NCBI GenBank assembly: GCA_030295235.1
Contig: AP026139.1
Coordinates: forward strand, 744,001-808,000
Length of the DNA: 64,000 nt
From: Fistulifera solaris
Lineage: Eukaryota
Reading direction: 5' to 3'
Below, piece by piece: positions 5,761 to 64,000 of this stretch (its first letter is position 1; each line of letters starts with the position of its first letter). Below the pieces are notes generated by a model that saw nothing but the letters and a program-made list of their open reading frames with translations, searched no databases and had not been told where the DNA came from. A program made the position numbers and the translations under genes.

Positions 5761-6100
5761 TAGAGGATTAGATTACTTTCAAGGCCGCGCGTAATGTCCG
5801 CGCGGGCGGAGAACCGTCTTCATTTCCATTGATTGCGAAGAAACGGAAATAAGGAATCAATTGCATTGAATAACTCTTATATATTATTCGCAAGGTCTAT
5901 ACTGATATTTTATTATATAAACATTGTCAATAACACAACACAACACAACAACAATTTTGCATCGACGAAACAGCGCTCTAGAAAAGGTGAAAGCTGCTTA
6001 ACTGCCATCACGAACTCTGATGCTATATAACGAAAAGTCACTCGCTTCAACATTCTGTCATCAACAGGATCAAAGGCGTTATCACACTGCACCAACAATC

Positions 6101-15543: not shown

Positions 15544-15919
15544 AAGGGAGCCCAGACAAAACCTTCTCCCTACAGTAGCTTTTAAAACTACCTGGTATGG
15601 ATGCCAATCTATTTGCGGCTTTGTTTTGCAATGAAGTCGTCATAGCACTCAGCGAAGCGCGTAGATCGGACTCATAATCAATACCCCTCATGAATGAAAT
15701 AAAACTCGAAACGTAAATTGGACAAAGATACAAGATCTAAAAAATGTTTTCTACGTCATTTTCACGTTGGCTCCGTAGGGAAAATTATTGACAATCTGTC
15801 CGTCTTCCGCCGGACCCCATGCAACAAAACAGACACGCAAAGAAACGCGCATCTTAATTCATTCCGTCTTTTATTATGCATATGGACTATAGTCATTGCA
15901 ATATCAATCACCTTTCAAC

Positions 15920-17869
15920 ATGACAAACGAAAAGACACCTGCCATTCTTACCGGACTAGTCGAAAGCCTAGGACCCGAATGCCTCGATCGCATTCAAAAT
16001 TGTCGTTTACTTGTCGTCGGAGCCGGAGGCATTGGTTGTGAATTACTCAAGAATTTGAGTCTCTCTGGATTCCGTCACTTCGAAGTCGTCGATTTAGACA
16101 CAATTGATGTCTCGAATCTTAATCGACAGTTACTTTTTCGCGCGAAACACGTCGGTCAGCCGAAATGTGTTGTAGGAGTCGCTGTGGCGAAAGATCTTTC
16201 GCCCTACGCGGATACACAAATAATGACAGCGCGTCACGGCAATGTCTGTGATAATTCCGTCTTTAATGTACAATACATGGAACAATTTGATCTTGTGCTG
16301 AATGCTCTCGATAATGTCACGGCCCGTCGCCGTGTCAACCGCTTGTGTTTGGCGGCCAACGTTCCCATGATGGAAGCCGGTACTACGGGCTATTTGGGAC
16401 AAGTGCAGACGATTTACAAAGGTGTCGCCTGCTACGAGTGCAAAACGCAAGAACCGCCGAAAGTCTATCCCATCTGTACAATTCGTTCGACGCCCAGTCA
16501 ACCCGTTCATACGATTGTTTGGGCCAAGGAATTGTACAGGCTACTCTGAGTCCCGATCCTTCTCAGAGTATGCTTTGGGAAGACTTTCAGAATGAAGAAT
16601 CGAGTACGTATATGCAAGCGGCGCTCGAGTTGCGCGACATGAATCAGGATCCCGACGCCGGTGAGCACACGAAAAAGACGGCGATAGATCGATTATGGAA
16701 GGCCTTGTATGCCGATGAAATACAAAAACAATTAAATATGGATCGTTACAAGACAGCCGAGAAGACTCCCATTGTGTTAGAAATGCCTACCGCTGCGATG
16801 AATACACAGCCCGAGTGGAAACCCATGTCCATTTGGTCCCTGTCGGAATGTTTCTACGAATTTAGCAATGCATTGATGTCGGTATTGGAGATGCCCGAAT
16901 CTTTTGACAAGGACGACGAACTGGCGATGCGTTTCGTGACAGCAGCGGCGCAAATGCGTAGTATGAACTTTCATATTCCCTTGCAAAGTTATCATGATAC
17001 CAAAGGCATTGCCGGCAACATCATCCCCGCGATTGCTACCACGAACGCTATTGTGGCCGGGTTGCAAATCCTGCAAGTCTTTTCTTTGTTGCAGGCGCAA
17101 CTCGCCAACAAGGACATTAGCAGTAAATTACCACCGGTGGGAACGGGAAAGTATATTAACTGTTTGAGAAATGCGACACGCAATGGGTTGTACTTGGCCG
17201 CGTCGCCTTTGGAAACACCGAATCCGCAATGTTTTGTGTGTCGCGAGCAGGTTACGGTCGTCCTCACACTATCCACAAAAACACTGCAAAGTCATTTCGT
17301 TTGCACGCTTTGTGCAAACGATCATTCAACAAGAGTTAGGCTTCGCTGAACCGACGGTTTATTTGAACCAAGATGTTTTGATTTGGGAAGAAGGCAAGGA
17401 TTCAGATGAAACGCTACGAAGTGTGAATGGTGTCAAGTTGTTGCAAGACTTGCCTCGTGGCGGCTTACAGCACGGATCCGTGTTGACAGTTGAAGACTTT
17501 AGTCAAGATTTGCAAGTCGATGTTCGCGTTGTGATCGTGTCAGATGAGGACTTTAAACGTCAACACGGTAAAGAAGATGATGCGGAAGAGGATGACGACG
17601 CATATGCTTTGCGTTATCACATTGGTGGCGATAAGCCGGTCGTAGGGAGGAGTGCTGGTGACGACGATGAAGCGAAAGAAAATTCGGCTGCTATCGTTGA
17701 GGATGCCGACGAAGATGGCGTTGTCGAGATTGTAGAGGACACCAGCAATGGTAAGAAGCGGGTCATGAACGGAGAAACGAGGCACGAATCGCCACTGAAG
17801 AAACAGAAGACGTCCAAAGGCGCTAATATCGAAGAAGGTGAAGAAGTGATCGAAATTGATGATCGATGA
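15920..17869 (+). CDS. UBA2: SUMO-activating enzyme E1 subunit 2 (two apparent frameshifts)
   Basis: GAGGIGCELLK, SNLNRQ, CxxC pairs, catalytic YPICTIRSTP, AGNIIPAIATTNA. Confidence 0.92.
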
Positions 17870-29261: not shown

Positions 29262-30255
29262 CTAAACTTTGTTCCAGTACGACGTAGTACTTCTTCGAGC
29301 GGTGGTACACGGTTCTATGTTTACAAACTCATCGGTCTTAGGATGGTGGCGCTGGGTCATGCACCAGCCTTGGCGTTGCTTTGGTTGAATCTCGAAACGG
29401 CTATCACTGAAACTTCCACCGACCGCCGTAAAGCGCTGCAACTGATTTTGGCTATCACACCGCTCAAGCTCCAAGTCCCTTCCTGAATTTTTCTGAATAC
29501 AGACACCTCTGTTAGCAACCTTTATTTGAACTTCATTAGGTCCATGCGATACAAATTCCCACTGGGTCGGCGAATCAGCGCAGTCATAGATAACAATCTC
29601 ATCTTTTATATGACAATTCTCTTGGCAGTTCAAGCACCATTTACGTTCAATTATCTCTTCCTGCCAAAAATACCCTTGATAGCAACAGCATGAGTAAGAA
29701 ATGTATGGAAAAGCCGATAACACTCGCATACGACTTACCTGGTTCCCAATACAATTTTAACGCAAATGTGTCCCTATTGGTCGGTGGTGTTGCATCATCT
29801 TTGACACAAAAATCGTAATCGGAGCTAAAGAGCTTGCTGTCCAAATCACAGCCCGGCGCACGTTGACCTCTGCTACGTTGATGGCATCGTAACCCTTCAG
29901 CACAGTCATCATCACTATCGCAATCACCTTGGCAAAGGCCTAGATTACTCACGTCGTTGTTGCCGACATAGGTAGCTTTTGTAAGACGTGCCGATGCTGC
30001 AACACAAAAGTCAAAGGGGGAGTTTTGTTGCTGCGTGGTGAGTGTGCATCCTGGGGCTGCTTCGCCTATCTTTCGTTCCCAACAAATGAGACCGGATTGA
30101 CAATCCGCATCGGTGTTGCAGTCGCTTTGACAAAGACCGAGACTTCCATTCTTTACCTGTAAGCGACGTCGCAATCGATGAATCGGACCCTCGTTATCTC
30201 TGGCAAGCGCGACAGATACGAATAGTGTTGGCAAAGTGATGATGTGATATTTCAT
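29262..30255 (-). CDS. Frustulin-like protein 3 (2 ACR domains; 1 intron)
   Basis: Signal peptide, RRLQ, CQSDCN, CQGDCD, Trp-rich domain. Confidence 0.9.
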
Positions 30256-32818
30256 GATTCTTTGCTAGGCGATCGTATTCGTTTTTTTTATGAAGAAAGG
30301 TGATAGCTCACAATTTCGTCGTCGCGACGCGAAGCTCATGAGGCACGTTTGAAGTCTTTTTTTTGCACGATTTGTGAAATCAAGTTTTTTATGTGGCGAG
30401 CTGGCGTCACTTTGTGCCATTAAGTGCCTACAAAAGCAACAATTTTGAAACGACTCGTTTTCGGGAGCTTTTACAAATTATACATAAAACGATTTCCGTG
30501 GGCAATAGCAACACGCGGTCAAAAGCATGAATTTTTAAAAAAGAACCATCAAATACCAGTTTTTACTTGATAATCTTGCATCAATTTATTCGTTTTGACT
30601 TGTATTTTCCCAACTGCTTCCGACTTCCGAGCAACGTTTTAAATAAATTTTATAGTTAGAGAACACGAATAAAGGGGAATTCAAACCGCGACTCGGCTTA
30701 AGCCAGGTACGTACAAAGTAGTAAGTACCAGGCACTGGGAATAGTCTTCAATTAGTCCCACTACGTAAACCATGACGATGGGTAACGAGTGACTCGCGAT
30801 CCGCGACCCGCGATCCTGCGTTTTGTTGTTGAACGCGATTGATTGATGCGAGAGATCGGGAAATGCGCATGCTATCTCCGTTTTCGTCACTGTCGTGTTT
30901 CATGCACAAATAAGAATTACAACAAGTAGTAACTCAAACAAAACATAACAAAACAAAAACAAAACAAAAGCTCACGATATGACGATAAACTTCTTGGCAG
31001 AAGTCAGCCGAAGCAGAGAACGTTTCTCACTCCTACGGGTCGCTTCACGCTCGAATTGCATGAGCTCTATATTCGATTGAAGGGACCGAAGTACATTCGC
31101 GCTATCAGCTACATTGACACCAAGGAACTCTTTTGCTTGCCCATTCCCAATGAAAGCACCTTCGCCTTGTCATTGGACTGAAAAGTCCTGTTCCGTGAGA
31201 TGTAAACTACTATCACAATCTGTTTTCATAAATCCCGACAACGAAGGGCAAGATGTTTGATGATGTGCGATGCCGTCTTCAAAGAACCACCGCGAGGACA
31301 CACTCAACTTGTACATGTGTCAATCTTAGTCGAATCTTACTCCCTATACGTTTACTATCATCTCGGGTAGAGATTTTACAGTGACAACTGAGTTTGAAAG
31401 ATTGAAGAAGGGGCCTGGGTCGAATGTGCTTTCGATGCCCAGGAAGGGCTCTTGTATCCACATCAAGGGCAATTTATCTTTCATCAAGAACCTTCTGTAT
31501 TGATTGCCTTTGCGGATATTCAAATCATCGACTTCCACAGTCATGCGGATAATTACGGCAGCAATCGCAAGATCATTGGGTTCGTGTGTATGAAGGCTTA
31601 CGATTAAGGTACAAAGGAATTCAGCTTTTCCGGAATCGATTGGTCCTACTATGACCGTCTTTATGAGTTCTTAAGTGGACGTCAACAGTTGACGGGAAAG
31701 TTGCAATAAAGTCAGCCCGGAGACGATGTTGAGGGAAGGGAACTTCGAAGCGGACGAGGAATCATCCGACTTTGAAGCGGACGAGGAAGAATCGGTCTCT
31801 GAAGTAGTCGAGGAAGAACCTTTCTTTGAAGTGGTCTGGGCAATGGGCATGAATCGCGAAAAACAATCAAGCGTGGCTACAAAGAAGGAGAAAGCATTCA
31901 AACGAATTCTCGACTGAAACGATAAACAGGCTGGTGATGCGCGATTGGGGGCAAACAATTGAAACGCGAGCACACTCAGGCGGAATCGGCCTTGCACGCT
32001 TTGGTAAAGCATTCGATTCGGGCTGCCGCGCCCGTCGGCGTTTTCAATGTTGAAGCATCGGAAGGATCGCGCTATGCGGCAGTAATGATCTCGTTTCTGA
32101 TTTGGATCCTCATCGAGAACAGATAATTTCGCCAACGGCTCATGACAAAACGATATAGTTGCGCCTAAAGCTGGTTGTTCAGAGCCAGCAAACCGTGGCC
32201 GTCAAGGGTTTCAGACACTGGCCCCAGAAGTGGCGACACACGACACTCAAGTCGCAAACTCGGATTCCTCGCGGCAAATGAGCAGAGATCCAATCGACGC
32301 AACCAGCAGTGCAGATGGTCAACAACACGACCTCAATCATGAGCGATATGAGAAGCATGAGTAGTAGACATCATTCAAGTGAGAAAATACTCGGTGTATT
32401 CTCCGTTGCTGGGTTCCTGGCTTACTTACGTTCTTTTGATTTGCTCTTTTGTTTTTGATCACGTGGTCGTTTGTTTTTGAGCATAGCAGCGTATAAGTTT
32501 TCTCTGAAATGGAGCACTGTTTGGAAATCATAACTCAATGTTTGAGTGGTCGATTGTTTCTTGCAATTGACATTGCTCTATGCGGCCGACTTGGTTGAAG
32601 GCTGTTACAGCTCGTATAGGTTCATTCAAATTGAATATCCACGTAGCTAAACACACAGACACTTCACAATTCTTTTACCAGTATAAGGCATAATCCCTAG
32701 TTTTAAGTAACTTGGAGACCATTTTTAAGTAAGGCATAACTCAAGAGAGATATCTTTAGACGTTCGACCGCCAAATGCAACGCTGCATTCAAGATTCTAG
32801 CACAAACAAGTCCCGCGC

Positions 32819-36517: not shown

Positions 36518-37704
36518 TCAGTATTTGTTCCAGTACGATGTGTTGCTGCCGTCGCGGCGTGCCGTCACGCATGGCTCAACATTCACAGACTCATTATTCT
36601 TTGGGTGATGACGCTGGGTCATGCACCATCCTTGACGTTGCTTCGGTGATATCTCAAAACGACGATCATTGAAGCTACCTCCAAATGCAACAAATCGCTG
36701 CTTTTGATTGCTGCTGTCACAATCAGCGAGCTCCAAGTCGTTGCCAGGAAACTCTTCAACGCAAATATTTCGATTCGCAACCTTGATTTGGACTTCATTC
36801 GGTCCGTGCGACACAAATTCCCATTGAGTCGGCGAATCATCGCAGTCAAAAATAGCAATTTCACCACCAGCACTGCATCTTCCGCGGCAGCTCATGCACC
36901 ATTTCCGCTCAAAAGGCTCATTTTGCCAATCGTATCCTTCAGAACAGAACACGGTGATGTGAGACGATCGAATCCATCTTCTCTTGTACGATCGGTACAC
37001 AAGTAATTATGTCTCTTACCGGGTTCCCAGTACAGCTTCAATGCAAATGATCCTCCCGAAGGCGGAGAGCGCACCGGCGAAGCAACTGGTGCCGGTGGCG
37101 TTGGAGTTTCCCCATTGCCGCCGCCGTCGCCGCCATTCGATGAATCATTGCGAACACAAAAGTCGTTATCTGAATTCATCAGGCTACGATTCAAAGTACA
37201 CCCGGGCGCTTCTTGTCCCCGATTTCGCTGGTGACACTTTAATCCTTGTGCGCAATCGCTGTCTCTGTCACAATCTCCTTGGCACAGACCGAGATTGCTC
37301 ACGTTATCATTGCCGACGTATGATGCCCTTGTTGTCCCATTGGAAGATGTAGGCGGTACTTGAATCGGCGCAGCGACAGGAGTGGGAAAAGTAACATCTG
37401 GTGGGTTCCCCGCCACACAGAAATCGACTCGAGAAGCGAGAAGTCGATCCGATAATGTACATCCTGGAGCATCATCGCCCGCGTCTCGCTTAAAGCAAGT
37501 GAATCCTGATCGGCAGTCGGCGTTGGTAACACAGTGGCCCTCACACAATCCGAGATTTCCATTGTGGTTTCTACCAAAGTTCCGGGCAGTTACTTGCAAC
37601 TTGCGTCTCAAGAATTGCATGGGCTGTTCATCGTGTTGGTTCGCTGCTGTACTCGCCACCAATAGAAGCAAGGGGACCTTGAGTAAAAGCTGAAGGACTG
37701 TCAT
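36518..37704 (-). CDS. Frustulin-like protein 6 (2 ACR domains; 1 intron)
   Basis: RKLQ, CEGHC, CQGDCD, FALKLYWEP|GYDWQ. Confidence 0.9.
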
Positions 37705-38508
37705 GGCTTGCTTGCTTGCTTGCTTGCTTGAGTAGCTAAACTCGGGTGAGATTCTTTGGGGAGAGATAATAATGATTATTTCCTAGCATTTATTTCATTT
37801 TCGTATGTTTGTGGGTGTGCCGTGTTCCGTCGAGTTGCCGATTGCCACGATCCCTCGGTTTCCGTTGAAGGGAGACTCTTTGTACTTAAGAATCTGAAAA
37901 CGGTTAAAGGAAACTCTTTTGTGAGCTTCAAAATTGTTTGTAGAGTTCATTTGTTCTTCGTCTTCAAAATGCTTTGTACTTTGTACTATGTGCATTATGC
38001 ATCATTTTCAGATCGAAAAACAAAGATAAATTCTAACTGTGGATAGTTTTGTACATGAAAAATCATAAAACGAAGCAATGGGTCATTGTTGTCAATGACC
38101 GATAACCAAATTTTTTTGACGGACGACAGACACGGACACGGACGCCTTTTGACAAGAACTCAATTACGAGTAATTTGGACTTTGGACATTCCAGTTTGAC
38201 GATAATCAATCAAATAAGGCCGACTGGCCTATTCGCAAATAATAACGTTGACAATGGCAACTTTACATCCAATTGAAAAGCGTGAGAACCACTACAAGAA
38301 TGAAATTGTCAGATTTTCTGTTGGGAGTCAGAAACCGGCTCATGCAAGCGACATTTGAAGCGTATCGACAAAACAACCACACAACAAAACTCATTGCCTA
38401 GTATTGAGAATTGCATGATAATACATAGATCACCTTAACGCTCGTGCAGTTGATTGACGATGAAACCAACGCCAATGCGCCCTCAAAAATCTTTCATCTT
38501 TGTCAAGC

Positions 38509-39443
38509 TCAGTATTTGTTCCAATACGATGTACGGCTTCCTTCTCGTCGAGCCGTGACACACGGCTCGAGGTTCACATATTCACCACTTTTAGGATGAT
38601 GGCGCTGTGTCATGCACCAGCCTCGACGCAGTTTGGGCGAAATTTCAAAGCTTCTTTCATCAAAACCTCCTCGACCAGCAACAAAACGTTGCTTTGGATT
38701 ATTGCCATCACATTGGGCCAGTTCCAAGTCATTTTCAAGAAACTCCTGAATACACAGATTTCGTTGGGCGACCTTAATCTGCACTTCGTTGGGACCGTGT
38801 GACACAAACTCCCATTGAGTCGGCGAGTCGTCACAATCATAGATGGCAATCTCGCTTCCTTTTCGACAGAACCGGCGACACGTCATGCTCATGCACCACT
38901 TGCGCTCGAATGGTTCATTTTGCCAATTGTATTCTTCACGGTAACAGTTGAGGAACAAGATGAACAAAAGGACGATTAGTGGCTTTTCATTTTCTTACCT
39001 GGTTCCCAGTAGAGCTTCAAAGCGAAAGTACTTCTGCTGAAGCCAAAATATTCGGCATTGCCATCATTGCTGGGAGCATCCGATGATTCAGAATGATGCG
39101 ACGGTGCCATTGTCGGTGATGGAGATGAGGGAAGAAGATCGGAAGCATCATCTGTTAGTCTGGCGACACAATAGTTTGTACGGGCATTCCGCTGCTTCTC
39201 CGATAAAGAACATCCAGGGACACCATCCCCCGCGTCTCGTTGGAGACAAATCAGATTTTCGCGACAATCTGCATCACTATCACAGTGGCCTTCGCACAAT
39301 CCAAGATTTCCAGAATGGTTGCCTCCATAGTTCTCAGCAGCTACTTGCAAATTGCGTCGAAGGAAACGAATCGGGGTTTCTTCATTCGCTAGAGAACAGG
39401 TAACCAAGTGAACAAACAGTGATGCTTGAATGACGAGCTTCAT
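38509..39443 (-). CDS. Frustulin-like protein 7 (1 ACR domain; 1 intron)
   Basis: RNLQ, CEGHCD, FALKLYWEP, Trp-rich domain. Confidence 0.88.
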
Positions 39444-40540
39444 GGCAACCGATTTGTTGATGGAAATAATTGAGAACAAGCGCCTACACCGTTGGATTCC
39501 TTCAAACTTTTGGGTGAACGTAATTTGTGTTCCAAATGGTTATTCGAATGGTGATGCACGATTGATATTCATGCACAAAACATGCACAAAATATTTTCTT
39601 TATAGGCGACATCATTATTTGGTAATTTCGATACACGAATTCGTCAAAGCGCAACGCTCTTTCAGCTTGTAACAACCACTTTACGACGGTTAACGGTTGA
39701 ATGATTTTCAGTTCCATGTAAACAGAGTTACGCTTCTCCGATTGTCGGTTATTTGTAATTTAGCTATGAACAAGTTACGGGCTTTGATTCATTTAGAGGA
39801 AACCATCGCATAAAAGGTCGTCGAGTTACGTTCAATCTTTCAAAGCTTGCTTGCTCCGTTCCAGCGCTAACATTGGATCCGATTGAATCTTGAATAAGAA
39901 ACAAACGACAAGAAAGACGTCCATTGGTTTGAATCTTACTCGGAATGCTGCGAATATGTTAGCTTTGATACGGAATACCGGTACATACTCTTGAAAGATG
40001 AATGCTTTTTCACGAAGCATAGAAGATGAAGATACCAATGAGTACAAGTACATACCTTTTTTATGCGTACCTGGTACCTGTCGCTCAAACAAGAGTGTTT
40101 GTGGCCTACTACATTGTACTCTGGCAATGAGGATCTTCCTGTTGCTATTGCTATGGCTACTCTAGACGAACGCTTTAATCAGCTACGGTTTTACAAAGGC
40201 TTATTGTGGAAACTTAAGAGAAAGAGAGAGAGGTTTGGAGCTTTGAGCCTCGGGCTATGACACATGACACATGACTAAAATCCAGTCGTGACGGAATCTC
40301 GCTGCACTTTGAGATTACAGTGAATACTCCGTAGTGACTAAACTTTATACTTTACCTGGTATAGTCAAAGTGGAAGTGCCTTTTTGTCCATCTGTTTACG
40401 TGAAGTAGTAATTTTCGTCCTTCGACGATCGCCTCTCTTTTTTTTCTTTTTCGCGGTTCACACGGAACCATTCAGGAGAAGGAATACGTTCGAAGAAACA
40501 GAAAGTTTGGCAGCCATGTGCGACCCATCCAGCCTACAGA

Positions 40541-50586: not shown

Positions 50587-51010
50587 GGTTCTATTGCGTG
50601 CTTCTTTGTATTTAGGATCGTTCGATAATGTGAAAAGAGCAAACTTTTTTTGTTGACTTGCTTTCAAGTCAAATAATAGAAGTCGTCGAAGAATCAATCA
50701 ACAATCCATCGCGTGAAGATCGCGTGGTGATTGTTGATGATGGATTCATTATTATTTGTTATGATGGTTTTTTTCATGAGAGGTCTCGGTCACGAGTCTG
50801 AGGTCTGAGTCTCTGGCCATCACCCGAGTTTTCGTCAGAACCAAGCAAAAAGAAGACCACGCGACGATCGACGATGGAAAAATTTTAGTTTGTGCGACGC
50901 AAAACTCCAGCTAACCGTACCTGGTATCTTGTAAAACGGATAATACACATTAACATCAACATCAACATCAACAGCAGATCTCCTCTACAATCTCTTCATT
51001 CAGAGTAAGA

Positions 51011-52356
51011 ATGAAAATACAAACACTTAAACGATCTACCCTCGATCGCGAATGCCCGAGTGATTTACGACGCGCTTCGCGAAATCTCGATCCTACGTAT
51101 CATCCTTTGCAAAGAGCTCGTGAATATACACGCGCTGTTACTTCCGCGAAGCTTGAACGCATGTTTGCTCATCCGTTGATCGGAAATCTAGGCAATGGGC
51201 ATCGTGATTCAGTCACTTGCTCTTCTCTCAGTCGAAGATCTTTGTTGCCTTTGGTATCAGGAAGTGCTGATGGAACAGTGGCTCTTTGGGATTTGACATC
51301 GCGAACGCAAGTAGCCGAAATACCAGCACATACGCGCGTTGTGACGGGAGTTGTTTTCGCGGTGAATGGAGAAACTTTTACAGCTGTAGTGATGATGGTT
51401 TTATTCATCAGTGGACGTTACACGCCAACTCCGAACAGCATAAACATAATTCGATTGCGACTTGGAGAATACCCGGTTCTTTAAAATCGATCGATCATCA
51501 CTGGATGGATGTATCCTTCGCCACAGCATCCGATTCGGCCGTTCAATTGTGGACACCGGAACGGTCTACACCGTTACAAACTTACAGTGAATTGTGGGGT
51601 TCAGATGACACAGTCACAACTGTTCGATTTCATCCTGTCGAGCATCATTTGCTTGCAGGATGCAGTGCCGATCGTGGTATTGGATTGTTTGATACACGCA
51701 GTGGCGTTGCACTTCAAAAAACAATTCTGCGGATGAGATCGAACGATCTTCAATGGAATCCCATGGAACCGATGAACTTCGTGGTAGCCAACGAAGACTA
51801 CAATGCCTACACATTTGACATGCGGAAACTCGATCAGCCGACTCGGATTTACAAAGGACACACATCCGCTGTCATGACAGCAGCATGGTCACCCACGGGT
51901 CGAGAATTCGCTACAGGCAGCTACGATCGCACCATCCGGATCTTTTCCTTGCAAGAAGGAGCGGCCCGGGATATTTATCACACGAAGCGAATGCAACGCG
52001 TCATGACAGTTCAGTATACATTGGATCACAAATTCATCATTTCGGGAAGTGACGAGAGTAATGTTCGCTTGTGGAAAGCTCGGGCCAGTGAAAAATTGGG
52101 ACAATTGACGACCCGAGAAGAGGCCGCGCAGCAGTATCGTAGCTCGTTGGTCAAGAAGTATCAACATCTACCCGAGGTCAAGCGAATTCACAAGGCGCGC
52201 AAACTTCCTAAAGTTATTAAGAATCAAACCGCGCAGACCTTGATCATGAAAGAGAGTGCGGATCGTAAACAAGCGAACCGAGTCAAGTACGATAGAAAAG
52301 GAGAACACTCGTTTGTCGGTGAACGGAAAAAGGTTGTCGTGAAAAAGGTAGATTAA
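51011..52356 (+). CDS. DCAF13: WD40 SSU processome protein SOF1/DCAF13 (frameshift ~51375)
   Basis: RNLDPTYHPLQRAREYTRA, KLERMFAHP, WD repeats, YHTKRMQRV, WKARASEKLG. Confidence 0.95.
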
Positions 52357-53050: not shown

Positions 53051-53221
53051 GTACGGAGTACGTGCTCGGTACTATTACGTATTCATGCTTCTTTTTTCAT
53101 GCTTCTTTTGCATCTTCTGTGCATCGATGCGGATGAATGAAGGAAGTTGAGCTGTAATTGACGGTGAATTCAAACAATAAAGGAGAAATGACGCGCATAA
53201 TAATGCGATAAGAACTCCTCA

Positions 53222-55372
53222 ATGTTGAAAGAGTTTTCGTTTTACTGGAATCTGCTCGTCTGCGCCTTGCTGGGCTTCGAAATGCGAATATCGGTAACGA
53301 CGAATGCGGATTCATGTGAGCCGTTTCATTTAAATGCAAAGACTGGTATTCTTCTTCTGAATACGAGCCTATATTGCGCAAGTAGTGAAGACTTCTTTCA
53401 TGCAAACGATGTGCAATTGCGACAAAATAAGGAGGCGGGTGACTTCATTTCATGGAATATAGAGCTAGAGAAGGAAGGAATCTACTGGGTAAATTATCTT
53501 ATCTCTTCTCCAGAAGGTACAGGATGGTTCGAACTGATAAGTTCCGGCGATGATGGTGATGAAAGTGTCATGATAGATAGCTTACTGCCTTTGACGGAAA
53601 ATTGGGAGACTTACGTAAATGTACAACAGTCCATGCAACTATCAGCAGGAAGCCAAACGATTACTCTCAAAGCAATAGAGGGTGGATGGGATATACAATG
53701 GCTTGAGATTCAGCCCGATTCTCATTACGCAGAAGAAACTGTGGCGAAATATCGATCTTTATCTCCACCAATACCAACGAAAGGATTTGCTCGAACGGAC
53801 GGAAGGCAAATTTTAGATCATTATGGATCACCATTACTTCTTCAGGGAATGGGATTAGGAGGATGGATGCTTCAGGAGCCGTACATGGTGTTGTTCAACA
53901 ATGTCAGCACGCAGTGGGAAATGTTTGAGCAGTTGAGCTCTTCCATCGCTGAAGAGAGTTTGGAAATCTATCGACAAGCCTGGTTGGATAACTGGATGAC
54001 CTACGATGATGTAGTGGAGCTGAAGCGATTAGGTTTCAATTCCATACGGGTCCCGTTACACTATAATCTTTTCACACTATCAATAGAAGGAGAGCGGGTT
54101 CAAGGGTCTGATACGTGGTTACGTGAAGGCTTCAGCCGTATTGATAAGCTTCTGCAATGGTGCGAAAGAGAGAACCTGTACGTCATCTTGGATTTACATT
54201 GTGCTCCAGGCGGGCAAGGGCGCGATGCCAAGATTAGTGACTATGACCCATCCAAGCCCAGTTTATGGGAAAGTCCAGAAAATCTCCGAAAAGCTGTTGC
54301 TCTTTGGGGAGCTATTGCCAAGCGCTACGCGGATAATCAGTGGCTTGCGGGGTACGATGTTTTGAACGAGCCCAATTGGGCTTTCGAGGAAGGTGGCGAT
54401 CCCGATGGCTGCACGGATCAGTTTAATCAGCCACTGAAGGCGTTTTATCAAGAAGCAATCGCCGCCATTCGAGAGTTTGATAATAATCACATTGTTTACG
54501 TTCAAGGAAATTGTTGGGGAAGCAACCACAATGGTCTTTGGCCAATTGATGATGACAACGTAGCGCTTAGCTTTCACCATTACTGGATGGAGAACACGGT
54601 AGAATCTATTGCCAGCTATCTACAATTGCGCGACGCCTACAATATCCCATTGTGGATGGGTGAAGCCGGAGAGAACCACAATCACTGGAAAACAGAAGCG
54701 GTAAATCTCCTGGAAAGTCATGATATTGGATGGGCGTTTTGGACATGGAAGAAGGTGGCGTCGACGTCTTCTTCGTACTCCATCGATGAACCAGATGGTT
54801 ACTTTGTTCTGCGATCGTATTGGTCCGAGCTGGATCGATTTTATCCTTCTTTCGTGGAGAAGACAATGATGCAGCTTGCTGAAAATACCCTGCTAGCAAA
54901 TTGTCGACGGAACGTTGCTGCGATCGAGGCCCTCACTGGTCACGACCGAAGCTGCAACGTGGCTGGTTATACCAAAATCGGAAATGTAGCTTCCACGAAG
55001 ATTGAGTCCGAAGACTTTTGCAGCATGCTAGGCGCTATAGTAGAAGGCACCACTGATCGAGGAGAAGTCGGGGATTCCATTGGCTGGTTTGATAATGGTG
55101 ACTGGCTTCAATATAACATTGAAATAGCCGAGGCTGGCCTTTACGAAGCGAGTTTTCGCGTGTCAAGCGTTGATGGTCACGGTGCCTTCAAAATGGTATT
55201 TGACGATGGAACGACTTTGGGCATCGTCGACTCTATACCACTTACGGGAAGCTGGCGTAGCTGGACAACCATATCGACCGAGTTATCGTTGCCAGCTGGA
55301 AAATACACTCTTACTATTCAAGCTCTCGATGACGGTTGGACGTTGAATTGGTTTTCTTTCGAGCAGCTTTGA
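53222..55372 (+). CDS. Glycoside hydrolase family 5 with N- and C-terminal CBM6-like modules
   Basis: GFNSIRVP, ILDLHCAPG, LNEP (acid/base), SFHHY, WMGEAG (nucleophile); CBM6-like GDWLQYNI, PLTGSWRSWTT, LNWF. Confidence 0.9.
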   Translation: MLKEFSFYWNLLVCALLGFEMRISVTTNADSCEPFHLNAKTGILLLNTSLYCASSEDFFHANDVQLRQNKEAGDFISWNIELEKEGIYWVNYLISSPEGTGWFELISSGDDGDESVMIDSLLPLTENWETYVNVQQSMQLSAGSQTITLKAIEGGWDIQWLEIQPDSHYAEETVAKYRSLSPPIPTKGFARTDGRQILDHYGSPLLLQGMGLGGWMLQEPYMVLFNNVSTQWEMFEQLSSSIAEESLEIYRQAWLDNWMTYDDVVELKRLGFNSIRVPLHYNLFTLSIEGERVQGSDTWLREGFSRIDKLLQWCERENLYVILDLHCAPGGQGRDAKISDYDPSKPSLWESPENLRKAVALWGAIAKRYADNQWLAGYDVLNEPNWAFEEGGDPDGCTDQFNQPLKAFYQEAIAAIREFDNNHIVYVQGNCWGSNHNGLWPIDDDNVALSFHHYWMENTVESIASYLQLRDAYNIPLWMGEAGENHNHWKTEAVNLLESHDIGWAFWTWKKVASTSSSYSIDEPDGYFVLRSYWSELDRFYPSFVEKTMMQLAENTLLANCRRNVAAIEALTGHDRSCNVAGYTKIGNVASTKIESEDFCSMLGAIVEGTTDRGEVGDSIGWFDNGDWLQYNIEIAEAGLYEASFRVSSVDGHGAFKMVFDDGTTLGIVDSIPLTGSWRSWTTISTELSLPAGKYTLTIQALDDGWTLNWFSFEQL

Positions 55373-57301: not shown

Positions 57302-58620
57302 TTACCCTAACAGAGCCGTAGCAGTGTCGGCGCCCATTGTTTCGACAAACCCTTCAATCCAAGGCATAATCCACGAATCGGAACCGGCGTTTACGTGGGC
57401 TTTAAATTCGTAAAATCGTTTTGACCGCCGCGTATCGTTTCTTGCAAAGTAACGCTCTTTCGATCCCAAGTAATGATAAACCATGAGGGGAAATCGATTC
57501 GCTTCTCTCGGTCGCAATTGATCAATCCGCCGACACAGACGCTTGGAGGGACGATGTATGCTGAACGGCTTCTCTGTAAACATTTCATCACTCCAAGGTA
57601 TTCGTGACACGTCAATAAGGACTTTCGGTTGCGCATTGCGTTCGGTATCATTAAATTCAGTGTGATATTTCCAGCGTAAAGTTTCCAGTCGTTCCGTAGA
57701 AAATTCGGCACTTCCGACCTTCAACGATGATGTTGCTGTAAGATTGCGGTCTTCCTCGGACCCAAACAAAAGCCGAGGCATGGATATGCAAGGATAATTT
57801 GCTGCTCGTAGCATAGTTCGATTGAGGGAAGCCGCAAAATGTATGATACTCGCCCGACCGCGAGGAGTTTTCGGTGTATTCGACCCAGGGCGTCTCCGTA
57901 GGTACGGGTTGATCACCATGTATTCATCTGTATCCAAATGCATGACCCAGTCCCGTCCGATCGCTTTAAATCTCTTCAAACATTGCGACACAAATGTTAA
58001 TTGTCGAAAACGATGGTTTTGTATTCTTAGATTATCGGCGATGACTTGTTCCGGTGTTTCGTGCCCTTCATGCCATTTCGATTTAGATGCATCCCCATTT
58101 ATAGCGTGCGGAGCAATGTGATAACCTTTTGCAAGAAGCTTTCGGGCATAAAGTCTTCATCATGCCATTCTTCAATCTGAATGTATTGTCGCCATGGTTG
58201 CAGAGTTTCGCTTGGTGATGTTTCGCTACTCGGATCAATTGCAACAATGAGATGCGTCATATTAAGTGTAAAATAATGATACGCAATCCATTCACTGAGT
58301 ATTTCATTGTCGTCTTTAATGAGTAAACACGCCGCCAGTGATACTGATTTAGAAGGAGTATAATTGATAGGAGGTTGCACGAATTCCTGTTGCTCTTCCT
58401 GTTGAAAGCCATCGAGCGTTCGTTGCAGTAAGTTCGCAGAGAATAGTTTATCACTGCGAATGGTTAACGTAAGAATATTAATTAGAAAAGAAAAGCCACA
58501 AAGGTTGCTAGCAAGGGCATGAACGCCCCCACACGAACGAAACCGGCCATGGTAAATTTTATTAAATATTTGATGGGCAGAAACACTCACGCCACGAAAA
58601 ACAACGCGAGCAATGCGCAT
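57302..58620 (-). CDS. GT-A fold glycosyltransferase (GT92/GT2-like; frameshift ~58110; start uncertain)
   Basis: AACLLIKDDNEILSEWIAYHY, WVMHLDTDEY, HYLGS. Confidence 0.75.
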
Positions 58621-58632
58621 TGTGCTTCAGAA

Positions 58633-58704
58633 AGGACGTTAAGATTCTGCCCCCAGTACAAAATTTTACGGAGCATCTACGTCGACGCAGGATTTTAACG
58701 CCGT
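58633..58704. repeat. Dispersed inverted-repeat element A, degenerate copy 3
   Basis: AGGACGTTAAGATTCTGC...GCAGGATTTTAACGCCGT. Confidence 0.7.
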
Positions 58705-58819
58705 GTAACCTTAGTTGGAGTATACACCATTGTTTTTTAAATTACAGATGCTGTCTATGTAGCGAATCTCAAGACTACTTTAATGCTTATAGTTACCTGC
58801 AGTCGAAATTCTTATTTAA

Positions 58820-61800
58820 CCCATATCCGGTCATGATATCCCATTTGGGATATCATACCCCATTTTAGCGAAGATTTCGTTACCTAACTTAATCTCTGTT
58901 TAACTTTCGAAATCCCCATTTTGATATTGTAATCCTTGTTATTTAAGTAAATTGGTTCTGAAATTTGTTTTTAAATTAGGCAGACATTGCAAATCCTATT
59001 ATCTGCTATATCGAGCACCTCGTCGGCACTTTTTGCTCTGTCTGTCACCCACACAAGGCCCTTTTTCTCATTCCAATATCTCGATCACCATGGCGTCTCC
59101 TGCAAATCTGGTTGATAATGATCAACAACAACAACCAAAAAAAACGAAAGTGTGGCCTTTGCAAAAGCGAAGGTCATGACAAACGGAATTGTCCTGCGAA
59201 ACCGTTTACCAGCCCAAAATTCAGTGCCTGACACGACCGTACATCAAAATGATGTTATTGTGGCACCACCAACACCTCCCATGCCTGCTTTTGTTCCTCG
59301 ATTCCCTCCTATACTTAACTGGCAACATATTCTTTATGTTGTATTTGATTTGGAGACCACTGGATTTTCAAAAAGTTTCACGAAATCATTGAATTGTCGG
59401 CACAGATTTTGAATCCATCCGGTATTCAAGTCGAAGATGGCCAATTCAGCGAACTTATCCATCCAAGCAAGATGATTTCGGATGAAATCATTGCATTGAC
59501 TGGAATAACCAATGATATGGTTAAGAATTCTCCATTGTTCCCAGTTGTTGCAAGAGATTTCATCCATTTCATGCAAAAATGTGCATCAGAATCCGACATT
59601 CGTGTTGATCACATCGTCCTCGTTAAGCACAATGGGAAACGGTTTGATGTTCCTTTCTTGCTTTCTGAATTGAAAAGATACAATCTTGAACATCATATCC
59701 TTGAAGATCATAGGTTTGGGTTTGCTATCGACCACGATAGAAATGGCAAAAAAAGCTGTCTCTCAAAGAAATTTGGCAGCACCGCCAGCTTACAACCTTG
59801 GTTCTCTTTTTCAATATGTCACTGGTGAAAACCCTGACCAAGCGCATCGTGCTTGGTCAGATGTGCAGTCAACAGTCCGTGTATTTCGCTTTCAGCACTT
59901 TTGGTCAATTCGTCTGAGTTGCTTGTTCTTGTTACATCCGAATGCATTGGAAGCTCCCACCACATTGACACTGGATCTGCCTGACGACTCGGAGGAGGAG
60001 GAAGTTTCTTCTGATGAAGAAAGCAAAGTCGGGAAGAATTCACTGATGAATTGATTGATGAAGTCAATAATCAAACGCAGCCTCTTGGGGATTCTTGGGA
60101 AAAGGATGTCATCTTCCAGGCTATGGAGCCGAATCCAATGGAAAGTTTCCGGATCCACCACACAACAGTTGGCAGGAGCGAACGAGTTATAACGGGTCTG
60201 TTGTGCAGTCCCATTGATGTCAACACACCGATTCGTGCCTGGAGGGAAATTTTCAAGAAAACACTACTTGATAGAATAGTGTTTCATACGAACGAATACG
60301 GAAAGCTACGATCAAAAGATTGGAAGGATGTTACACGGCATGATCTGGAGCAATTCATTGCGGTGTTATTCCTTATGAGTATCCAAAAGCGAAAAGACAA
60401 GCCATCAAACTGGTTCTCAGACGATCCATACCTTGAATGTCAGGCTGCAAAAAACATTATGAGTGGGCGAAAATTCCACAAGATGCTTCGATTTCTTCAC
60501 TGTTGCTCTGTAACCAATCAACCAACAGGAGACAATTATGATCCAGCCTATAAGATAGCAGAAGTACGGGACTACCTGGAAGACCGCTTTTCCAGATTAT
60601 TTTCACCTGGCCAACAATTGTCACTTGATGAGACTCTCATTCGTGCATTTGGAAGGATGAAGTTCAAAGTGCGCATCATTTCTAAGTCAGCACGGTACGG
60701 GATCAAATTATATGTGTTGACTGATGCTGAAACAGCATATGTCCTTCGTGTTCTTGTTTACACCGGAAAAGCGACCTACGGGCGAACATGAATCAGATGA
60801 AGTCAACAAAAAGAAAACTGTTCAGGTAGTTGAGAAGCTGGTGAGCCCATTCTTTGGTACTCACAGAACTGTTTATGTGGATCGGTTCTATACATCAGTT
60901 GATCTGATGAAGGCGCTGAAAAAAAATGATATCTATGTGACGGGGACCGTTGTTGCAAACAGACTACCAAAAGATGTGCGACTAGCCAAGAATTCACCGG
61001 TGTTTAAGTCCATGAAAAGAGGAGATGCTATTAAGTTTCGCTTAAAGATGAATGATGGAAGTGGTGGGGTCTTCTATGCTGGTCTGGTGTGTTGGAAAGA
61101 CAGTAAAATGGTTTACTGCCTTTCGAATGACAGCAATAATCATGACTTCGATGAGTGTCGCCGAAGAGTGCAAGGTGGGATTGTTACAGTCCCAAGACCA
61201 ATCTCAATTGCACACTACAACAAATACATGGGGGGTGTTGACTTGGCGGATATGCGCCGGTTGCACTGTAACTCGACGGTGATGGGACTAAGTCGTTGGT
61301 GGTTAAAACTCTTCTTCTATTTGCTGGATGTTGGGACTTCTAATGCTCTTGTCTTGTACAACGAGTCACAGAAGCAAAGAGTCAATGATTATAAGCCAAC
61401 AAATATTGTGGAGTTCAAAGGAAAACTAATCTCCAGTCTTGCAGGAGAGATGTCTGGAAATGAACCGAATGTGGCAATGGCAGGACATAGGGCTGAGAAG
61501 ATTCCTAATGACCAGAGATCCAAATGTGCCTATTGTTCCATTCAAGGAAGGGACAGTAGGTCAAGGTACAGATGTGAAACTTGTGGAATTCCCCTTTGTT
61601 CTGTTTTCAATGGTAAGAGTGATCACGATTGCTTCAGTGAGGCTCATAAAAATGAGGATGTGAGACAGTTGACACTTGCCCATTACAAGAAGATGCAGAC
61701 AACAACAAACAACAGAGGAAAGAAAAAAAATTAAAATTAGTAATCTATATATAGTCAACTCACTATTCGGTGACTTTCAATGGAAACAACCAATGATATG

Positions 61801-61946
61801 TTAGTTTTGCAAAGGTTTATAACTTAAGATCCATGATTTCATAGCATCATTAGTACATTTGCGTAGAAACAGTACCAGGTATAATTACAGTTTCTGACCG
61901 GTACTGATATCCCATATGGGATATCAGGGGGGTGATCGGATATCGG
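58820..61946 (+). mobile_element. piggyBac-superfamily DNA transposon, full length
   Basis: TTAA at 58816-19 and 61947-50; TIRs CCCATATCCGGTCA / TGATCGGATATCGG (12/14 match); subterminal 24-bp palindromes; transposase inside. Confidence 0.93.
59090..61734 (+). CDS. DEDDh exonuclease + piggyBac transposase + Cys-rich C-terminal domain (about 5 frameshifts as assembled)
   Basis: FDLETTG, HNGKRFD, HRAWSD; SLDET, KSARYGIK, VDRFYTS, YNKYMGGVD; CAYC...CETCGIPLC...CFSEAH. Confidence 0.85.
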
Positions 61947-62182
61947 TTAAAAAGATGATTGTCGTAGTGACTCTGTGTTGTGACACAGTGTGACATTTAC
62001 ACGGATAAACTAGCCAGGAGCTAGGAGGAGGAGTCTAAGTCAAAGTGCGAGACTACCGGTACGTACCAGGTAAGATAGAGTATTGATTTAGACCGCGACG
62101 CTTTGTTGAGTAAAATGGCAAAGTTATTACAAGAAAAGCATGCAACTTGCTTTATACATTTGGTAACGGCAGTTTATTGACC

Positions 62183-64000
62183 TTAATCCTCATCAAGGAC
62201 ATCATCTTCATCCCATGTATCTTCAAATTTGGACGCGGCTTCGGCACGAAATGTTTGCAAACCAGATAGTCGCTCCAAGTAGTCTCCATCTTTGCACGCT
62301 TGGAGTACCGTAGCATTTTTATCGTTCAGATATGCTTCAATCACGGATCTCGAACAGGCTGTGCAATAGGTGAAGGCCGGCACCGTAGGTGTCATCATCG
62401 TATACGAGACAAGAGATCCACGAATTTGATGAGGTATCAGGCCTAAAGGACTTTCGGAATCAACGGTTGGAGAAAACGGATTCAGTCCGCTTTTTGGTGC
62501 CGATGCATTGATGCCATCGGGGTGGTGAAGGAGTGACACCATGAGCTCTACGGCCATAGAACTGGCAATGGGTGCCAATCCAGGTCGAGTCACCGTACAT
62601 TGTTGGTCCAAAGTTCGATTTTTCATGGAATTCTCCGGTGCTACGATATCATTACAAAAATAGCAGCCGAAGCCTCCTCCATGTCGCATCACGAGCCAGC
62701 TATCTAGACCGAGCGCCGCGTTGATCATTACCTTATTGTGAGCAGCCGCCATCACGGTTGGCAACCAGCGCGATTCCCGCGTATCGGTAAGCAGATAAAC
62801 AACATCGCATTCTTGGATCAGCTGATCCAAGTTTTCGACGGCGTCTTCTTCTACTGCAGCGTGACCGGGCATCGGAATGGATAACTGATGTCCGCGACTC
62901 ACGACATCAGCAGCGATCTGCCGCAAGGCATCCGCCGCGGCTTCTGCTTTGGGACTACCGCCGTCATGACAGTCCTCTAAAGTAAATAACGACTGTCGAA
63001 CTGGGTTCGAATAACTCACTTTTCCGTAATCCACAAAATCGAAATGTCGAACACCCCATCCTAGCAAAACGCGTGCAACATTGCATCCAAGAGTACCAGC
63101 ACCCAAGAGAAGCACGCGTGTGCTCTGAAGCTTATCGACTTGCAACTCAGGAATCATGCGCCATTTCATCAGTTTGAGATTCAAATCAGCTGCCTGAATG
63201 GCCAAATGTGTCGGGTCTAGCAACGGCTGTAGGTTCATCCACCGCGGCCCGGGCTTGCCGCGGACGTTTAGCTCCCAACCTGTAGTTCTATATGCAGGCA
63301 GAGAATCTGCCTGAGCAGTTTTGAGTCTCCAATTGTAATTATCTTTTGTTGGGATTTGTATTTGTACAACAATGCTGTGATCCAACGACGCATCATAATC
63401 GTGTGGTTTCGTATGGACGTCCCATCGACGCAGTTGCTGCCCCCGAAAACTCAAAATTGATACAGATTTACCACCTAAGTCCAAATGAAAGCATAGGTAG
63501 GCAACCAGATTTCGCATAGTCCAGCCCATGGAGGCTGGGCCTTGGGTAACGTCATCGAGTTTCTCTGAAAAATCAAGGAATCCAAACAAAGATCGTTTTC
63601 TCCGCGTACGGATTCATAATCTGCCAAGGGGACGCATTTCGTTTTCGTAACAATGAAGCATGGATCTAATCGCCCTTGATTCTTACGCATAAGGTGTAAA
63701 TTCTCCCAGAATAACGCTTTTTCTTGACCTGTCCAGCCCCACTCCTCTTGCTTCGATGCCGTGATACTTTTCCCCGGTACGGGTAACAATGCTGGAATTC
63801 CGTACCAATAAAGAATCTTGTGCTGCTTCAAATCCGCAAACGTGATCAGTAATATTGTTTGAAGTCGCTTCTCGTCGGAAAAGAAGTGAGGTAAAAATGC
63901 TGGTTGAGCAAGTCGTTCTTATCGACTTGTTGAAACGTTTCCATCGTATTGAATCCGAGTAAAGTCCCTTTAACGCAGATTCGCTCATTTGGAATAAGAG
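62183..64000 (-). CDS. ATG7: Autophagy E1-like enzyme ATG7 (5' end outside window; frameshifts)
   Basis: DLNLKLMKWR, GAGTLG, SNPVRQSL, DTRESRWLP, RTLDQQCTVTRPG, PHQIRG. Confidence 0.95.

Follow-up and report, generated by a model that had tools for sequence, protein, structure and literature searches.

We analysed a stretch of 64,000 nucleotides from the diatom Fistulifera solaris (NCBI GenBank assembly GCA_030295235.1, contig AP026139.1, positions 744,001 to 808,000 of the forward strand), referred to below as the window, and found at positions 58816-61950 an element that is very probably a piggyBac transposon encoding a single polypeptide of about 881 amino acids, in which a DEDDh 3'-5' exonuclease is fused in frame to the transposase. 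All positions are window coordinates on the forward strand. The piggyBac elements are among the best understood eukaryotic transposons and are much used in genome engineering, and the hallmark of their transposition is that it involves neither DNA synthesis nor end trimming; to our knowledge, the textbook reaction proceeds without any end processing.

The element has all of the features by which the piggyBac superfamily is recognized, namely a TTAA target-site duplication, terminal inverted repeats (TIRs), a catalytic core with three aspartates (DDD) and a Cys-rich domain. Two TTAAs (58816-58819 and 61947-61950), evident on direct reading, enclose 3127 bp with the termini 5'-CC...GG-3'. The left end has the order TTAA-CCCATATCCGGTCA-TGATATCCCATTTGGGATATCA, and the right end, read as its reverse complement, the order TTAA-CCGATATCCGATCA-CCCCCC-TGATATCCCATATGGGATATCA; the inverted repeat at each end is a two-part structure, and because the spacer is present at the right end only, the two ends are asymmetric. 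The 22-nt arms are 95% complementary, and the 20-mer core of the arms occurs at just two places in the window, where 0.01 matches would be expected by chance. BLAST of the element against the window returned a 51-bp TIR of 80% identity, and no second copy of the element in the 64 kb. The left palindrome is a putative binding site for the Cys-rich domain of the transposase.

The boundaries were also compared with X1, a public run of the same organism in the form of contigs (library kind off record; it holds 0.88 of the sampled words), and with X2-X4, three soil-metagenome runs from one study. Contigs of X1 bridge both junctions between element and flank without difference (58531-58845 and 61922-62216), while other contigs of the same run leave the element into different flanks, two on the left (exits at 58815 and 58820) and three on the right (61949-61951). 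The pieces recovered from X2-X4 are mostly 90-99% alike, and their other flanks break at 58814-58816 and 61952-61953, which fixes the element boundaries independently. The features of the two ends are as follows.

58816-58819, plus strand: left TTAA target-site duplication, read directly; other-flank contigs of X1, X2 and X3 break at 58814-58820
58820-58833, plus strand: left terminal 14-bp inverted repeat, CCCATATCCGGTCA; 12 of the 16 terminal positions compared match the right end
58834-58855, strandless: left subterminal 22-bp palindrome, TGATATCCCATTTGGGATATCA, from comparison of the arms and counting of the core
61905-61926, strandless: right subterminal 22-bp palindrome, TGATATCCCATATGGGATATCA, from comparison of the arms and counting of the core
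61927-61932, plus strand: G6 spacer, right end only (C6 on the element's right-end strand), read directly
61933-61946, plus strand: right terminal 14-bp inverted repeat, from direct reading, BLAST and end comparison
61947-61950, plus strand: right TTAA target-site duplication, read directly; other flanks in X1, X3 and X4 start at 61949-61953

From the N- to the C-terminus the encoded protein consists of a CCHC zinc knuckle, the DEDDh exonuclease, an acidic disordered linker, the piggyBac DDD core and a Cys-rich tail. The exonuclease carries the ExoI D-x-E, the ExoII D and the ExoIII H-x4-D that characterize the DEDDh class, and Pfam matched RNase_T at 59349-59828 (8.6e-13). The transposase was matched by DDE_Tnp_1_7 in two overlapping parts, the first half of the profile at 60018-60791 (7.2e-38) and the second half at 60721-61734 (9.1e-26). 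Pfam also gave a weak Exuperantia-like match, in the window and in relatives. The knuckle, CGLCKSEGHDKRNC, lies upstream of the exonuclease and fits the pattern C-x2-C-x4-H-x4-C, although Pfam returned no match on the knuckle piece of the window. The disordered acidic linker very probably corresponds to the acidic N-terminus of canonical piggyBac transposases.

59090-61734, plus strand: coding region, 881 codons after the differences in X1 are applied, in seven frame pieces in the window
59151-59192, plus strand: CCHC zinc knuckle, C-x2-C-x4-H-x4-C, residues 21-34 of the 881-residue reading, read from the sequence
59326-59915, plus strand: DEDDh (DnaQ-H, RNase_T) exonuclease domain, from Pfam, alignment with TREX1, Foldseek and conserved residues
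59344-59364, plus strand: ExoI motif FDLETTG, read and aligned with TREX1
59628-59648, plus strand: ExoII motif HNGKRFD, read and aligned with TREX1
59845-59862, plus strand: ExoIII motif HRAWSD, read and aligned with TREX1
59983-60024, plus strand: acidic run DDSEEEEVSSDEES in the disordered linker between exonuclease and transposase, read from the sequence; its counterpart in the relative P0006 has a model confidence (pLDDT) below 50
60225-61347, plus strand: piggyBac DDE_Tnp_1_7 catalytic core, from Pfam and from alignments to piggyBat (9c0f) and T. ni piggyBac (6x67)
60627-60629, 60880-60882 and 61240-61242, plus strand: codons of the catalytic aspartates, from alignment to 9c0f and 6x67
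61515-61647, plus strand: C-terminal Cys-rich domain, from the invariant Cys and His columns of the family alignment and alignment to the C-terminus of piggyBat

A preliminary description of this DNA, prepared from its letters alone, had proposed a TTAA-flanked, TIR-bounded element of 3127 bp whose product would have about 880 codons if its frameshifts were errors. The TTAAs, the complementary arms and the 51-bp TIR bear out the first proposal, and the 881 codons obtained with the X1 state agree with the second. The three exonuclease motifs, acidic linker, DDD core and Cys-rich tail that it listed are present and collinear over the seven frame pieces; the knuckle was absent from its account.

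Comparison of the protein P0006 with known sequences supported the assignment of both enzymatic domains. It matched piggyBat at 1.6e-27 and T. ni piggyBac at 2.3e-20, and human TREX1 at 9e-8 over the whole exonuclease domain, with weaker matches to the PolC exonuclease and to ERI1 (2.4e-4 for ERI1); in the alignments the DDD triad and all of the DEDDh residues fell on the equivalent positions. The AlphaFold2 prediction for P0006 had a mean pLDDT (predicted local distance difference test) of 77.3 and a pTM (predicted template modelling score) of 0.64. Ten-residue blocks of the exonuclease (residues 71-280) averaged 78-96 in pLDDT, mostly above 80, and linker residues 288-323 fell below 50, as expected of a disordered segment. 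Foldseek ranked piggyBat (1.7e-22) and piggyBac (7.3e-21) highest, followed by zebrafish Plex9.1 with single-stranded DNA, TREX1, the S. thermophilus DnaQ domain, TREX2 and the DinG exonuclease, all of them DNA exonucleases. Target template modelling (TM) scores were 0.64-0.81 except for DinG, which is a far longer chain, and reached 0.73-0.81 for Plex9.1, TREX1 and the DnaQ domain. By sequence and by predicted fold, then, the exonuclease domain is closest to the DNA exonucleases of the TREX1/TREX2/Plex9 type, with which it shares a match over the whole domain and aligned DEDDh residues; it differs from them in being a domain of a transposase, and at 18-25% identity it is TREX-like and is not filed as a TREX orthologue.

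In the window the coding region is interrupted by six frame breaks, and X1 was informative as to their origin. Its contigs differ from the window in length at six places in the element (one base fewer in X1 at 59137, GC added at 59195, A added at 59369, one base fewer at 59732, G added at 60030 and one base fewer at 60780) and in three substituted bases (AA to GC at 59625-59626 and T to G at 60708). The six length differences coincide exactly with the six frame breaks, and applying the X1 differences yields a single open reading frame (ORF) from the ATG at 59090 to the TAA at 61732-61734. All six involve one or two bases, and four lie inside runs of at least three identical bases. With the substitution at 59625-59626, LVKHNG becomes the consensus of the family, LVAHNG.

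Host genes in the window are broken in the same way. When the neighbouring ATG7 gene was compared with a metagenome protein of 93% identity, it was found to occupy three abutting frames (residues 61-95, 95-197 and 198-656) with no residue missing; the ThiF, SCCH and UbL domains of a UBA2-like gene (15893-17869, plus strand) are distributed over three frames that overlap, and a Sof1/WD40 gene (50954-52356, plus strand) is spread over two. These frame-split genes, for ATG7, a UBA2-like SUMO-activating enzyme and Sof1/WD40, are without introns. Because host genes such as ATG7 and the UBA2-like gene are also frame-broken, the breaks in the element most probably come from indel errors in the assembly, an explanation that we hold with good though not full confidence. 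The assembly of the window appears to carry roughly one such error per kilobase, and frameshift or pseudogene calls in this genome deserve suspicion.

Evidence on mobility came from the same runs. Word depth in X1 was 68-93 over the element, whereas the contigs across the two junctions had 19.5 and 11.3; contig depth does not equal copy number, however, and from X1 we take support for more than one locus only. With the different flanks described above, the data largely establish the element as an autonomous, multi-copy DNA transposon of the piggyBac superfamily in a raphid pennate diatom, and it is probably still mobile. One joint in X1 (59478 to 61257) skips 1778 bp; its shorter side has 29 letters, too few by the rule applied to bridging contigs, and it was not counted. 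A TIR-bounded metagenome copy of about 2.4 kb (locus L014, 173-2580) has an internal deletion that removes part of the coding region. Together with locus L012, these are possible internal-deletion, non-autonomous derivatives of the family. Variants in X3 and X4 have 57 bp at 61450-61508 exchanged for 24 other bases, in frame by length; this segment between the DDE core and the Cys-rich tail is a variable linker in close relatives.

The fusion is a trait of a protein family. We defined relatives as the 120 matches listed from a search among longer proteins with the transposase piece, and sorted them by domain content by hand count. The exonuclease family PF00929 and the transposase family PF13843 occur together in 80 of these, PF13843 occurs without PF00929 in 39, and PF00929 occurs alone in one. 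Seventeen of the 39 start inside the exonuclease domain, which marks them as truncated gene calls; the other 22 start after it. Many relatives are 800-950 amino acids long and lie on element-sized contigs of 3.1-4 kb. Both Pfam families match all 36 of the aligned full-length members, with RNase_T matching end to end in P0006, and the zinc-finger profiles match few (zf-CCHC_6 on the knuckle in 5 and zf-Tnp_2 on the Cys-rich domain in 4 of the 36).

Conservation, counted in the 67 relatives of at least 780 amino acids, was near complete at the catalytic residues: the five DEDDh residues are kept in 65, 65, 67, 67 and 67 proteins, and the DDD triad in 67, 66 and 66. Any one position of the knuckle is retained in 37-38 of these proteins. 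The Cys-rich domain has the invariants C812, C815, C828, C831, C836, C847 and H852 in the family alignment (P0006 numbering). Between pairs of proteins the exonuclease averages 0.41 identity and the DDE core 0.59, and the values for the two domains rise and fall together (r = 0.85 over 2211 pairs, a correlation that relatedness inflates), which fits a single old fusion whose parts were inherited jointly. For the core, 1 of 55 pairs was usable for the ratio of nonsynonymous to synonymous substitution rates (dN/dS), and this pair (L009/L015) gave 0.12.

A HMMER search with the exonuclease piece found 330 proteins at E values up to 0.001. None of the 330 scored below 1e-30, and fusions or fragments of the family were among the best matches (8 of the 150 listed are fusion proteins), from which we conclude that the domain has no close cellular donor. 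The same piece, a short query in a word-index search of longer proteins, gave a single match, to a Selaginella MutS-exonuclease fusion (2.7e-4). The ESM Atlas returned one cluster (score 0.95) with PF13843 in 99% and PF00929 in 15% of members and few taxa recorded, which we treat as a lead only.

Public annotation of these proteins is at odds with their nature. Nitzschia inconspicua, the only named eukaryotic source among the listed proteins with both domains, contributes one 90% cluster of eight members on several scaffolds, which bear the names 'PolC-type DNA polymerase III', 'DNA-directed DNA polymerase' and 'exonuclease'. For P0079 and its cluster (KAG7354197.1 and others), 'PolC-type DNA polymerase III' is probably a label error. 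Another relative (P0049, NCBI MFM7529124.1), on a contig of 3883 bp, is filed under a cyanobacterial metagenome-assembled genome ('Nodosilinea sp.') and is probably a binning contaminant. Dozens of proteins from diatoms, metagenomes and this one cyanobacterial genome that are called 'DNA polymerase III epsilon-like' or 'PolC-type DNA polymerase III' can be corrected to transposases.

A metagenome scan separated the family from canonical elements. It found 29 family loci (41-75% identity), which match from residues 1-17 where the contig allows, and 51 canonical piggyBac loci (24-30% identity), which match only from residue 279 on. Six of the 29 carry uninterrupted frames of 894-967 amino acids over both domains. 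Among 14 loci whose ends were examined, six (L002, L004, L005, L007, L014 and L021) have the same asymmetric end design as the window element, with the terminal sequence CCxAxATCxxxTCA, a C-rich spacer on the right only, and a 20-22-bp palindrome that sits at the same place in all six and has a locus-specific sequence; the remaining eight gave short, chance-like end matches only. L007 and L014 are flanked by TTAA on both sides; L002, L004 and L021 have it on the left. In L004 and L021, which are independent relatives, the right flank is TTAT beside an otherwise perfect terminal repeat, which may mean that the duplication has mutated or that the end differs slightly. A strict TTAA...TTAA scan of the 29 family loci found none, most of the contigs stopping at the element ends. 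We regard it as largely established that the ends of the clade are fixed in design, with TTAA, a 14-bp terminal repeat, a right-only C-rich spacer and a palindrome of 20-22 bp that differs by locus.

A FastTree phylogeny of the DDE core was computed from 108 of the 120 listed proteins, the X1 reading and 35 of the 51 canonical loci, rows short of the core being omitted. A single clade of 107 tips took in all of the exonuclease-bearing and truncated sequences; P0121 and a transcript of Ploeotia vitrea were placed outside it, among the canonical elements. It is largely established that the element comes from a separate piggyBac clade whose members as a rule carry the exonuclease fusion, as the preliminary description had suggested in speaking of a distinct lineage.

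Several points weigh against this account and should be set beside it. The support of the 107-tip clade is only 77, and some of the 22 relatives that start after the exonuclease domain may truly lack it. In all 66 exonuclease pairs the synonymous divergence (dS) fell outside 0.05-1.5. No contig joins 58815 to 61951 as an empty-site allele would, which in itself counts neither for nor against. X1 is perhaps the window's own source sample, and since its library kind is off record it allows no claim on expression or copy number. Its contigs, moreover, collapse all copies and show the majority state, and the copy in the window could be truly broken.

That last thought leads to the view that the family is real but the copy at 58816-61950 is dead, its six frameshifts being true mutations. 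Collapsed contigs would indeed hide a minority variant, and short base runs are natural slippage sites too. However, six length changes as against only three substituted bases over 3135 bp is a ratio typical of sequencing error and not of decay, and conserved single-copy host genes in the window have breaks of the same kind; we consider a dead copy distinctly unlikely. It was also conceivable that piggyBac had captured a host exonuclease once and that the product was now decaying, an outcome the preliminary description had allowed for, along with the finding that other copies lack the exonuclease. The window does hold a single, frame-broken copy. Yet most of the listed relatives (80 of 120) have both domains, six metagenome loci have intact frames that span them, the catalytic residues are retained in 65-67 of 67 proteins despite a mean identity of 0.41, the two domains co-vary, and no close cellular homologue appeared among the 330 HMMER matches; such a capture is therefore extremely improbable. 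We give as little credence to a domesticated, immobile host protein derived from piggyBac. Public annotation does treat relatives as cellular ('PolC-type DNA polymerase III', 'DNA polymerase III epsilon subunit-like'), but the TIRs and TTAA duplication, the different flanks within one organism and in soil metagenomes, the many relatives whose contigs, about 3.1-3.4 kb long, stop at the TIRs, and the multiple near-identical copies in N. inconspicua all rule against it, and this candidate was rejected.

As to what the exonuclease does, it was reasonable to propose that the transposase part would cut and paste at TTAA as in piggyBac, that the Cys-rich tail would read the palindromes, and that the flexible linker would tether the exonuclease to the transposase, with assistance from a knuckle that binds single strands, so that the exonuclease could act on DNA 3' ends inside or beside the transposition complex. 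The preliminary description had raised end or donor processing and the breakdown of silencing nucleic acids as possible roles. Whether the exonuclease does process DNA ends in transposition we judge to be about evenly poised. Among possible functions, processing of DNA 3' ends is favoured because of the covalent tether, the DNA-acting nearest relatives, and the fact that the authors who described Dada and KolobokD made the same proposal for their exonucleases (in the available parts of PMC3706591 and PMC9587614).

Two versions may be distinguished. In the one that we prefer, though we put it forward as doubtful taken by itself, the exonuclease would act on the donor flanks once the element has left, digesting their recessed 3' strands; such resection would block seamless re-ligation at TTAA, and repair from the sister chromatid or homologue would restore the element, for a net gain in copies. 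In the other, 3' extensions on the transposon ends would be trimmed to the footprint of the transposase, as in the Cas1-Cas2/DEDDh 'trimmer-integrases'. It is possible, if appreciably less than an even prospect, that the fused exonuclease alters the logic of piggyBac in one of these ways, giving either templated repair with copy gain through donor-flank resection or 3'-end trimming, or a eukaryotic 'trimmer-integrase'.

End processing has its own difficulties. A 3'-5' exonuclease could destroy the very 3'-OH ends needed for integration, and piggyBac, as far as we know, needs no exonuclease. The CCHC knuckle, a classic single-stranded nucleic-acid binder, would fit an RNA substrate too, and ERI1 is among the weaker matches. 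The main alternative is a counter-defence module, which would degrade silencing small RNAs in the manner of ERI1, or stray cytosolic or extrachromosomal DNA in the manner of TREX1. The ERI1 match (2.4e-4), the weak Exuperantia-like match in Pfam and the knuckle all speak for such a role, and TREX1 and Plex9 restrict retroelements and clear DNA, according to the part of PMC10123124 that deals with them. On the other side, covalent fusion in 36 of 36 aligned members is easier to reconcile with action on DNA that belongs to the transposase than with a freely diffusing factor, and the best full-domain matches are DNA exonucleases. We consider counter-defence unlikely; the TREX-type DNA exonucleases as closest relatives lean towards DNA-end processing.

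On one side the element is bordered by the 3' end of ATG7, and on the other by the 5' end of a gene on the minus strand (57302-58626).

62213-63998, minus strand: ATG7, from protein comparison

The best named matches of ATG7 are from the raphid pennate diatoms Cylindrotheca, Seminavis, Mayamaea and Nitzschia (59-63%). Elsewhere in the window, a cluster of Ricin-B (beta-trefoil) lectins comprises three paralogous ORF pairs (29262-30264, 36518-37782 and 38509-39539, all on the minus strand), each again split over two frames that overlap. A 722-residue open frame at 53204-55372 (plus strand) places a GH5 cellulase between CBM35 and CBM6 modules, an architecture that looks bacterial for a diatom gene and may reflect horizontal acquisition. 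A 623-residue frame at 6002-7873 (plus strand) fuses SufE to a complete MnmA-type tRNA 2-thiouridylase (HUP, PRC-barrel and C-terminal barrel).

The preliminary description had left room for the architecture being already catalogued. Full-text literature searches turned up no description of a piggyBac element with an exonuclease, and no paper among those listed combined a piggyBac with an RNase_T Pfam term. Repbase and Dfam, journals behind subscription and the PDF supplements of PMC9587614 lay outside these searches, so the architecture may already have an entry in some catalogue.

Like canonical piggyBac (6x67; piggyBat 9c0f), the element has a TTAA duplication and asymmetric TIRs, a DDD triad that aligns at LDE/IDE, D(N/R)(W/F)(F/Y)TS and GGVD, a C-terminal Cys-rich domain, and an acidic disordered segment N-terminal to the core. 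It differs in its identity of about 22% and its separate clade, in an N-terminal extension of about 290 residues with a CCHC knuckle and a complete DEDDh exonuclease, and in termini that open with CC(C/G)A and include a palindrome particular to each locus. Mitra and colleagues (in 2008) and Chen and colleagues (in 2020) have reportedly described the piggyBac reaction as nicking, hairpin formation and joining through TTAA overhangs, for which an exonuclease is not needed.

Exonucleases have been found in other eukaryotic DNA transposons. KolobokD (Kojima and Bao 2022, PMC9587614, as far as its available text goes) is likewise a TTAA-targeting DDD/E cut-and-paste transposon with a DEDDh (DnaQ) exonuclease, said there to resemble TREX, ERI1 and Exuperantia, and these neighbours are common to both exonucleases. 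Compared by description, that of KolobokD is counted among accessory proteins whereas ours is an in-frame fusion, and Kolobok, in the same available text, belongs to another superfamily with 5'-RR...YY-3' ends and a C/DxxH signature. Membership of our element in Kolobok was considered and rejected: its termini are 5'-CC...GG-3', and its transposase is DDE_Tnp_1_7/piggyBac by Pfam, sequence and fold. Dada (Laccaria and Ectocarpus; Kojima and Jurka 2013, the available part of PMC3706591) also has a DnaQ-like 3'-5' exonuclease within the transposase polypeptide, but one of DEDDy type inserted between the catalytic residues, where ours is DEDDh and N-terminal, and it represents another superfamily that targets small RNA genes. 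ISL2EU transposons have a YqaJ exonuclease, according to the accessible portion of PMC4122938. DEDD exonucleases in eukaryotic DNA transposons are known from Dada and KolobokD, within what those sources cover, and the new element of the present system is one fused to a piggyBac transposase.

Outside eukaryotic transposons, the closest analogy is the Cas1-Cas2/DEDDh 'trimmer-integrase' with the S. thermophilus DnaQ domain (8h18 and 8h2f; PMC10284694 and PMC10470216, in the parts open to us), which also couples a DEDDh exonuclease physically to an integrase that uses a 3'-OH, and whose DnaQ domain matches ours in fold (TM 0.81). That system is prokaryotic and has the Cas1 fold, and trimming has been shown there, in the same parts of those papers, whereas here it is only proposed. 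A widespread and constrained lineage of exonuclease-transposases suggests an unstudied variant of the piggyBac reaction. If our reading is true, the element would be a third case, beside Dada and KolobokD, of the independent coupling of a DEDD exonuclease to a cut-and-paste DDE transposase, and, taken with these two and Cas2-DEDDh, it would suggest that 3'-end trimming has a general part in the reactions of integrases.

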